A stretch of 52,583 bases of DNA from Aquiluna sp. Lineage in GTDB: Bacteria; Actinomycetota; Actinomycetes; Actinomycetales; Microbacteriaceae. A program made the translations under genes and the position numbers. This document shows positions 14,381 through 43,210 of the stretch, one piece after another (position 1 is the stretch's first letter; every line of letters begins with the position of its first letter). Under the pieces are notes generated by a model. It was not told the origin of the DNA and did no database searches. It worked only from the letters and a program-made list of their open reading frames with translations. The stretch is from the NCBI GenBank assembly GCA_049457355.1, contig JBMUBK010000001.1:1-52583 (forward strand). Direction: 5' to 3'.

Positions 14381-14501
14381 CGTGCCTTTCGTTTGTAGGC
14401 ACGGGATTGAGGTCTCCCTGCGCTGGCATTACCCAGATCAGGTTTGACGGTCGAAGACTTGCAGTCTTCCTCTCAGCCCGGTGCAACCGGACTCCCGTGA
14501 T
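14381..14501 (-). ncRNA. TPP riboswitch with translational expression platform
   Basis: Minus strand GGGAGTCC...GGGCTGAGAGG...GACCGTCAAACCTGATCTGGGTAATGCCAGCGCAGGGA, upstream of thiB. TATAAT at 14509-14514. Confidence 0.96.
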
Positions 14502-14509
14502 TTATTTGA

Positions 14510-36459: not shown

Positions 36460-36603
36460 GTCCTAGATTTTTTGACTGGAACTTTTTCGAAATGTTCGGG
36501 CTTGTTCTTTATTGTTCGTTTGTGATTATTTTGTTATGAAATCAGCGACCTGACCCCTAATTGGGGGATTAGTCTTTTCCCAAGAGTCCAATTAGGAGGT
36601 TCA

Positions 36604-42265: not shown

Positions 42266-42298
42266 AAAGAAAAGGGGCGCAGGTTGCCCCGCGCCCCT
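42266..42298 (-). terminator. Intrinsic terminator of the rhodopsin gene
   Basis: Minus strand AGGGGCGCGGG-GCAA-CCTGCGCCCCT followed by TTTCTTT. Confidence 0.88.
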
Positions 42299-42310: not shown

Positions 42311-43069
42311 TTAGTCGCGGAACTCAGCCTTAGCGAATTCCTTGTCTTCCTCACCACTCTTGATACGAGCGATGGTGAAGATCATCAGACCGAATAGACA
42401 CTTCGCCAGAATGTCGGCGATGGTGTAACCGGTCTCACGAAGCACGAAGCTGGTCTCGTCGAAACCAGTTGCGTTCATGTTTGCGATGAAGGCGATTGGG
42501 TAAACACCCCAGGTTGCGAGAAGAAGAAGACGTAGCTCCTTGATCTTGCGCTGTACAGCCTCGCTCTGACGCTCGAGGCTCTTACCGAGCTCAACGAACA
42601 GTACGTAGAGGATGTATAGGAATGGGATGGTTGAAAGCAGACCCCAAACCGAAGGCGCTAGGCCCATGGTCATGCCGGAGTCTCCTGGGTAACCCAGAGC
42701 GATCATCAGGGCTGCTGCTGGTACTAGGCGGACGAGCAGTGAGCTCTGTGCCTGGCGAGCTAGCGCGAGAACTGCAACGGTCTCAACCAGTAGCAGTGGA
42801 ACAGTTAGGAACCAGTCAACGTAACGGTAGCCAACGTTGTAGGAGGCTCCTGCTACTGCGTCTGGACCGAATGCGTGGACAAAGCTGTCGAACATTCTGA
42901 AGTAGTGGTAAGCGGCGATCGCCGTAACCGTTGCCGAGACCATGACAGCCATGCGGTAACGGGGGAGAACACGCTCACGTGCTACGAGAAGAAAGGTGGT
43001 AGTAAACAGCATGCTCGCAATTCCAAGCGAGAGCATGTTGAAGACTACGTTATAACCTTCTGCACTCAT
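42311..43069 (-). CDS. actR: Actinorhodopsin (xanthorhodopsin-clade light-driven proton pump)
   Basis: Helix C RYVDWFLTVPLLLVE (DTE motif, Leu tuning residue), retinal Lys in DILAK, helix B His (AYHY) and WGLLSTIPF. Confidence 0.95.
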   Translation of the reverse strand: MSAEGYNVVFNMLSLGIASMLFTTTFLLVARERVLPRYRMAVMVSATVTAIAAYHYFRMFDSFVHAFGPDAVAGASYNVGYRYVDWFLTVPLLLVETVAVLALARQAQSSLLVRLVPAAALMIALGYPGDSGMTMGLAPSVWGLLSTIPFLYILYVLFVELGKSLERQSEAVQRKIKELRLLLLATWGVYPIAFIANMNATGFDETSFVLRETGYTIADILAKCLFGLMIFTIARIKSGEEDKEFAKAEFRD

Positions 43070-43153
43070 TTATATTTTTCCTTTCGGCCTTTAGGTGTAG
43101 GCCGACTCGGAAGCGAATCGAGGTCTTCGACCAGCTTCTTCGCTGACCTACAC
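43070..43153 (-). promoter_or_regulatory. Structured 5' leader of actR (candidate cis-regulatory RNA)
   Basis: Four nested stems readable by eye, starting about 7 nt after a TAGTTT -10 box (43161-43166). Confidence 0.55.
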
Positions 43154-43194
43154 ATAATTCAAACTACACCTATTCTGAGAAAATCCTGATAAAT

Positions 43195-43210
43195 GTAACG
43201 TTTTGGTAAC
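43195..43210 (-). promoter_or_regulatory. GTTAC-N6-GTTAC direct repeat (OmpR/PhoB-family box) upstream of the actR promoter
   Basis: Minus strand GTTACcaaaacGTTAC, 11-bp period, just upstream of the expected -35. Confidence 0.5.

Follow-up and report, generated by a model that had tools for sequence, protein, structure and literature searches.

The actinorhodopsin gene actR of an Aquiluna strain lies in the window (by which we mean the whole 52,583-nt stretch of DNA analyzed here) and is preceded, on the minus strand, by a leader that spans about 43153 to 43070. A preliminary description had drawn this leader as a compact four-way junction with a switch-like alternative fold and had placed it among uncharacterized cis-regulatory RNAs. 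The questions raised by the locus are which of the folds open to the leader is conserved among relatives, how it might bear on access to the Shine–Dalgarno (SD) sequence, and what could read it.

The actR gene, its promoter and its transcript

The proteins closest to ActR were Aquiluna records (99–100% identical), and the gene was present in 32 of the 36 same-genus genomes searched; the coordinates of the gene and of the elements discussed here are collected in Table 1. The strain also carries a second rhodopsin gene (46% identity; C132:1415-2119), with an intact frame on a 2.2-kb contig and an upstream region that looks unrelated. Directly after the terminator-like hairpin at the 3′ side of actR lies a 37-codon hydrophobic ORF with an AGGAG SD (42250-42137, minus strand). 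Elsewhere in the window, a TPP riboswitch (Rfam RF00059) was found at 14398-14508 (minus strand).

Table 1. Positions, in window coordinates, of actR and of the observed and predicted elements around its leader.
Feature	Position	Strand	Remark
actR, actinorhodopsin gene (252 aa), presumed regulated gene	42311..43069	(-)	Pfam PF01036, E 5e-36
Terminator-like hairpin 3′ of actR	42274..42290	(-)	
Shine–Dalgarno GAAAGGA	43079..43085	(-)	GAAAGG invariant in the wider-group alignment
AGGCCGA segment, forming helix H3 (state B); overlaps the first SD bases	43084..43090	(-)	87% of cells paired, 33 sequences
3′ switch strand; partner of the 5′ strand in state A and of the SD-side segment in state B	43095..43105	(-)	
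Helices in the inner part of the long state A hairpin, burying loop positions 4–6; GAAGC with GCUUC at 43114-43110	43110..43138	(-)	MFE
Hairpin H1 (4–7 bp), hexaloop GAAGAA 43141-43136, G4 = 43138, closed by C43142-G43135; predicted ANTAR/PdtaR site	43129..43148	(-)	
5′ switch strand (a)	43145..43153	(-)	state A: with 43103-43095; state B: with 43135-43129 or 43125-43121
Predicted −10 hexamer TAGTTT	43161..43166 (read 43166-43161)	(-)	GGYGTAGTTT context as before hpf
Second direct repeat TATCAG-N5-TCTCAG over the −35 region	43175..43191	(-)	genome copy number 1; relaxed pattern in 62/150 regions
Direct-repeat DNA box GTTAC-N6-GTTAC upstream of the promoter	43195..43210	(-)	relaxed pattern in 95/150 unique actR upstream regions

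The TAGTTT sequence that had been named as a −10 box is present as claimed. A sigma-70 scan of the region found no promoter; the promoter call is backed by analogy, GGYGTAGTTT also being found before hpf, and GGCGTAGTTT is the promoter context common to actR and hpf in this genome. Judged from the −10 position, transcription would start at about 43154-43153. Seven of the 14 listed RNA runs were compared with the locus. Two of these (X12 and X14) gave deep contigs over actR and covered the upstream gene sparsely or not at all; the contig ends lie within the leader, at 43139 (an adapter end) and, for the longest listed piece, at 43104. The other five (X1, X2, X4, X5, and X8) covered the neighboring genes too and are uninformative on the start site. 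The runs thus hint, weakly, at a nearby start of transcription for the leader.

The GTTAC-N6-GTTAC box is likely the site of a transcription factor; the relaxed pattern also precedes three solute-binding-protein-like genes of the strain. Boxes of the form GTKAY-N6-GTKAY were seen in the window near 36521 and on contig C11, with a variant on C65, and solute-binding-protein-like genes lie downstream. The two direct repeats at the actR promoter (43210-43175) are taken by us to resemble OmpR-family boxes.

Folding of the leader

The leader sequence given in the preliminary description was correct to the letter, and every stem drawn in it is able to pair. The minimum free energy (MFE) structure, however, is a single long irregular hairpin (−31.0 kcal/mol, z −3.85; 0 of 200 shuffles equally low), compared with −25.4 kcal/mol for the four-way junction as drawn and −26.7 kcal/mol for its best completion. 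The other 10 close relatives gave the same order, with the long hairpin stronger than the junction. The junction is, therefore, not the main fold, and neither is it a conserved one: among 11 close relatives, 10 cannot form the first pair of its 3-bp middle stem, and no third hairpin is left in the wider group alignment. A kissing loop or pseudoknot between the first and third hairpin loops had also been considered possible; this register was 72.7% paired with zero double-sided changes. The GAAG/CUUC complementarity on which that idea was built is real, and its pairing is conserved, but it engages the second GAAG and does so as a helix of the long hairpin, not as a kissing loop. This helix carries three double-sided changes (A-U to G-C in 3 of 11 close relatives).

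When the hexaloop of H1 was forced open and no coding bases were included, the best fold of the strain's leader was a multibranch form of −27.3 kcal/mol, near the drawn junction. Since it is best under these settings, the junction may, in the folding model, be a real minor conformer in the Aquiluna strain. With 18 coding bases included, the SD-pairing form was best under the same constraint (−28.7 kcal/mol). The alternative helix of the preliminary description, UCGGCCU (43105-43099) with AGGCCGA (43090-43084), does pair and is mutually exclusive with the closing stem.

Two predicted exclusive states across leader types

To compare the leader among relatives, 215 actR loci were gathered, with 167 distinct upstream regions. 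The 11 closest leaders yielded no structure convincingly above the shuffle control. Across the wider set, leader types from Aquiluna, Rhodoluna, and Aurantimicrobium share a common layout despite very different sequences: a 5′ strand with two possible partners, the short hairpin H1 with its six-base loop, and a 3′ strand that pairs either with the 5′ strand (state A) or with a segment ending at the SD (state B). In 33 sequences of the strain's own leader type, state B (H1 plus the SD-side helix) was 89.9% paired and the closing helix of state A 86.4%, each with three double-changed pairs; both values are far above slid controls, and the accompanying shuffle control ignores relatedness, so it does not amount to a p-value. 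H3 has one pair with double-sided changes in these sequences. The SD-side helix is kept, with different sequences, in each leader type, and in the Aurantimicrobium type the SD-sequestering hairpin covaries. RNAalifold gave weak consensus folds on the wider MAFFT alignments (−1.3 and −4.0 kcal/mol), as is expected of a leader with rival folds and a middle part that cannot be aligned.

We consider it very likely that this is a real, conserved cis-regulatory leader. That part of the preliminary description stands, given the pairing kept among relatives and, in the predicted folds, the exclusive hairpin on the ribosome-binding side; of the options it had named, binding by a protein fits best with the ANTAR-type hexaloop signature described below. 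What does not stand is the uncharacterized kind: the leader is not outside known kinds and resembles an ANTAR-target RNA in the way it is predicted to work.

A small-molecule or ion riboswitch would also be expected to have two exclusive folds linked to the SD, and a riboswitch-like aptamer had been suggested. An Rfam search returned no match at the gathering score, in line with the earlier statement that no known family was recognized, and at E ≤ 10 nothing beyond a chance mir-1245 match (E 8.2). Neither the junction nor the pseudoknot is conserved, which leaves the aptamer unsupported. No more than about five nucleotides come close to invariance when leader types are compared, to our knowledge too few for any known aptamer class, and a riboswitch is hardly to be expected here.

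A conserved hexaloop in H1

In ANTAR targets of the eut type, the element AGCAANGRRGCUY has been defined, in which A1, G4, and the closing pairs matter (Ramesh et al., PMC3369931); G4 is flipped out against the ANTAR domain, and the minimal site has been redefined as one hexaloop (Walshe et al., PMC8934654). The hexaloop of H1 in the Aquiluna strain has its G at position 4 (G43138), as an ANTAR-target hexaloop does. Its stem can reach 7 bp in this strain, and the closing pair is C-G in 31 of 33 sequences of the same type. An anchored set of 105 leaders was compiled (110 by pattern, from which 5 mis-anchored ones were dropped). Position 1 of the loop, where the anchor demanded a purine, is A in 68 and G in 37 of these, the strain having G. 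At position 2, 92 of the leaders have A, and a G precedes the closing C in 102; positions 3, 5, and 6 are variable. In 44 of the 105 leaders, H1 has only 1–2 contiguous pairs. Two leaders match AGCAANGRRGCUY exactly and 15 of 105 do so within one mismatch; the Aquiluna strain has two mismatches.

Because the closing pair, purine 1, and G4 had formed part of the anchor, the loop was recounted anchor-free in 140 unique 115-nt windows before the SD, taken from loci of ≥70% identity with enough flank (two were dropped that had no SD match). A C-G-closed R..G.. hexaloop on at least 2 bp occurred in 110 of the 140 unique leaders (shuffles: mean 32, maximum 41) and on at least 3 bp in 86 (mean 12, maximum 18), related genomes not being independent samples in these counts. 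It was the majority in 13 of 25 sequence clusters. Shifted-pattern controls reached at most 57 (≥2 bp) and 38 (≥3 bp) of 140; 7- and 8-nt loops were enriched too (60/140 and 89/140, respectively). When the best C-N6-G hairpin was picked blind to the loop, R1 and G4 came out together in 79 of the 140 leaders and in 12 of the 25 clusters. In the unrelated leader type of Aurantimicrobium and its kin, all 8 leaders have the loop, and the stem shows changes from C-G to U-A. Since G4 is also paired in state A, in 11 of 12 leader types, its conservation could be partly structural.

Dual loops have been described as required for ANTAR targets (Mehta and Ramesh, PMC8164766). A second hexaloop hairpin was found neither in the strain's leader nor, as a conserved feature, within 25 nt across the 105 leaders, and none is conserved between 70 nt upstream of the loop and 30 nt into the gene. 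The actR leader is, therefore, not filed in the dual-hairpin ANTAR family. A CsrA/RsmA site was also considered and rejected: position 5 of the loop is G in only 27 of 105 leaders, and PF02599 was not found in the genome (88% complete).

Some actR leaders have no clear loop, for example at loci L061, L094, L103, L109, L120, and L199. An ANTAR gene was found in 7 of 10 genomes with such a leader, the other three being draft assemblies, and the co-occurrence of loop and pdtaR, therefore, adds nothing. Other Luna-cluster leaders are structured and fit the switch poorly (L091, L092, L097, L197, and L206-L208, as well as L101, L104, L195, L198, and L203). The last five are of a Rhodoluna-like type with incidental matches only, and no coupling was predicted in the three tested.

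Predicted effect of H1 on SD access

When H1 was forced during folding, opening the SD became costlier in 68 of 105 leaders and cheaper in none. The median cost of opening it rose from 1.2 to 3.8 kcal/mol, and forming H1 cost a median of 3.2 kcal/mol. In 26 leaders, H1 is present already in the unbound fold, and forcing it therefore changes little there. For the Aquiluna strain the effect was modest: H1 costs 1.9 kcal/mol and raises the SD cost from 0.6 to 2.0 kcal/mol, and the multibranch fold, which leaves the SD open with the hexaloop held open, competes. Among 42 representatives, 17 show an SD shift equaled by no more than 1 in 25 shuffles of the middle segment, and in 16 the shift was 1 kcal/mol or less.

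If a leaderless upstream ORF or temperature were in control, the decision would lie elsewhere in the same RNA. A 29-codon ORF (43155-43066, minus strand) spans the leader, its stop overlapping the actR ATG, and an ATG or GTG lies near the predicted start in 96 of 105 leaders. The 29-codon frame is confined to the closest relatives; across leaders, the ORFs vary in length from start-stop (35) to at least 10 codons (48), nine leaders have none, and a conserved leader peptide was rejected. As for temperature, the predicted share of H1 stays at 3–5% throughout 4 to 37°C (P(H1) 0.03–0.05, P(H3) 0.03–0.07); no shift is predicted, and an RNA thermometer was likewise rejected. We regard control by either route as very improbable.

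PdtaR as the probable reader of the leader

One ANTAR-domain protein (PF03861) was found in the Aquiluna genome, a REC-ANTAR orthologue of PdtaR (1s8n, E 3e-69). Aligned to EutV, it keeps the RNA contacts R142, K149, E160, M172, and R175, with Y164 replaced by F, N173 by D, and R177 by S; the genome thus encodes a cognate ANTAR protein with RNA-contact residues, as a single-hexaloop site calls for. An orthologue of PdtaS, the kinase of PdtaR, is encoded on contig C59 beside a WhiB-like gene, which we take to be whiB. The alignment showed that the Aquiluna protein has not retained the pair of GAF cysteines present in the solved PdtaS, so the copper/NO sensing described for PdtaS (PMC8131098) probably does not apply to it, which suggests a different input signal. 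Heme and c-di-GMP inputs have been reported in mycobacteria (PMC11537054).

The hexaloop signature, the PdtaR/PdtaS pair, and the similar loops before gltB and hpf (see below) together make a single-hexaloop PdtaR switch the best reading, and the actR leader is probably read by PdtaR. For the complete picture, we favor on balance a conserved leader with two folds, the hexaloop of which would be bound by PdtaR with the effect of lowering rhodopsin translation; phosphorylated PdtaR has been found to repress translation (10.1101/660928). In the unbound RNA, the 5′ and 3′ strands are predicted to lie in one long hairpin, in which the loop G4 is buried and the SD is open (ON). Once H1 is formed, the 3′ strand would be released and would pair with the segment at the SD (OFF). 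Dimeric phosphorylated PdtaR would bind the single loop, with G4 flipped out as in EutV, and binding would have to pay roughly 2–3 kcal/mol to hold H1. A stress or starvation signal that inhibits PdtaS might then release actR.

Similar loops before gltB, hpf, and distant rhodopsin genes

A scan of 698 upstream regions (88 kb) of the strain gave 165 hexaloop matches, which is chance level; actR is among the four longest stems. The leader of gltB (glutamate synthase; contig C24) carries a GGGCC-RANGWN-GUCCC hairpin, and C-RANGWN-G is present in 30 of 30 genus loci, position 1 being A in 19 and G in 11. There is a mismatch under the closing pair, as in the weak-stem actR types. Holding the hairpin open freed the SD in 27 of 30, so gltB is predicted to be ON when bound, and PdtaR would act on it in the direction opposite to that on actR. 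The 3′ part of gltB stands in a row with gltD, pyk, and pdtaR on contig C25. In the leader of hpf, the gene for the ribosome hibernation factor HPF (contig C131), the hairpin sits at the predicted 5′ end, directly after the shared promoter context and a few bases before the SD; of 30 genus loci, 20 have its loop at −24 to −26 and the remaining 10 have other loops. Hexaloop hairpins were also seen before a 5′-nucleotidase-like gene (contig C73, 9 bp) and before an aldehyde dehydrogenase-like gene (contig C5, two hairpins, one of them over the SD).

A class-wide rhodopsin search gave a match in 48 of 401 genomes. Family f61 (genus g164; L296-L322), which belongs to another order and has small complete genomes of 1.3–1.5 Mb, has a different conserved actR leader, in which the loop lies at a fixed position: among 17 anchored loci (22 in total), the closing C is found in 16, purine 1 in 17, G4 in 16, and the closing G in 17. 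In the alignment of 15 loci, closing C, G4, and closing G are three of only eight invariant columns, and covariation is seen at 7 of the 16 pairs in the long hairpin that competes. An ANTAR protein is encoded in all three f61 genomes checked. Because the exposed hairpin costs 3–11 kcal/mol and the predicted SD effect is near zero (about 0.1 kcal/mol), the site is only suggestive. Among 35 distant rhodopsin loci (54–61% identity), a match of at least 2 bp was found within 170 nt in 17 and of at least 3 bp in 11; the positions are scattered and the counts have no shuffle control, and the loci outside f61 were not counted as support.

These leaders bear on two further explanations. The first does without a protein: H1 and H3 would form first, while the RNA is being transcribed, and relax to the long hairpin, so that a kinetic or bistable leader sets basal translation, and G4 and the C-G pair would be kept for structural reasons. 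This agrees with the two folds lying about 2–3 kcal/mol apart in the median leader and with the pairing of G4 in state A. It does not explain well why C, G4, and G are fixed in the f61 alignment while neighboring loop positions vary, nor why gltB and hpf carry the same loop although their competing structures differ, and we think it quite unlikely. The second explanation keeps PdtaR on the loop and changes the outcome, the protein activating, or stabilizing the mRNA at its 5′ end, instead of repressing. H1 does lie at the predicted 5′ end, like the hpf hairpin, which has no anti-SD partner; it is folded beforehand in a quarter of the anchored leaders (26/105), and f61 keeps its loop despite the negligible SD effect. 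However, the direction of the predicted effect is consistent (68/105 harder to open, 0 easier), and the SD-side helix is conserved with different sequences per leader type, both of which fit repression better; activation or stabilization is accordingly judged unlikely.

Taking repression of actR by PdtaR as the preferred reading, one may speculate, and only tentatively, that streamlined aquatic Actinomycetota use PdtaS-PdtaR as a post-transcriptional master switch, which through single hexaloops would turn gltB on and rhodopsin (perhaps also hpf) off. Rhodopsin leaders bearing the site would, on this view, come in several unrelated designs, that of the f61 family among them.

Relation to known systems

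Searches of the literature on actinorhodopsin or rhodopsin leaders, riboswitches, ANTAR, and post-transcriptional control found no description of the actR leader. In the text and supplements searched of PMC8164766, "rhodopsin" has 0 occurrences, and the Rhodoluna matches there are other genes. The main text of the 224-motif paper (PMC5737381) contains neither "rhodopsin" nor "ANTAR"; its supplement, which lay outside the search, could bear on novelty. The actR transcripts and retinal supply are discussed in PMC8591293 and PMC12422013, in the consulted parts of which the leader goes unmentioned, and, according to the former, an RNA-seq paper, light-sensing and regulatory proteins for actinobacterial rhodopsin had not been identified. 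A translational switch on actR would be missed by transcript surveys, and a PdtaR site on its mRNA offers a named regulator, a binding site, and single-base tests. PdtaR is widely conserved but poor in targets, and actR, gltB, and hpf make up a candidate small regulon in bacteria that are harmless and can be cultured. If the reading is true, rhodopsin phototrophy would be wired to nutrient status through an RNA-binding two-component system, a stress or nutrient sensor turning down synthesis of the light-driven proton pump during translation. The EutV structure predicts ANTAR targets with a single hexaloop, and the leader would then also be a natural example of one, acting on the SD from a distance.

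The nearest known relatives, as far as the published accounts consulted describe them, are the eut RNAs bound by EutV in Enterococcus faecalis (PMC3369931; PMC8934654). Like the actR leader, they have a short stem, a hexaloop, G4, and a C-G closing pair; a bigger structure of greater stability competes with the small hairpin, and the reader is a REC-ANTAR protein. In contrast to eut, actR has one hairpin instead of two and no U-tract terminator, its output is access to the SD, G is frequent at position 1, and repression is predicted. With the actinobacterial and mycobacterial ANTAR RNAs bound by PdtaR (10.1101/660928; PMC8164766), it shares the PdtaS-PdtaR family and, as predicted for actR, repression of translation at the level of the ribosome-binding site. 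The published targets described there are dual stem-loops that overlap either the site of ribosome binding or the start, whereas the actR leader has a single loop at least 50 nt upstream, which is predicted to act at a distance by strand exchange. It thus works like an ANTAR target and, having no dual hairpin, differs from the published family. The closest parallel within the same genome is the gltB leader, which has the same loop consensus, one hairpin only, and a helix at the SD that competes with it; actR differs from it in being predicted OFF rather than ON when bound, and in its longer leader with a three-strand exchange.
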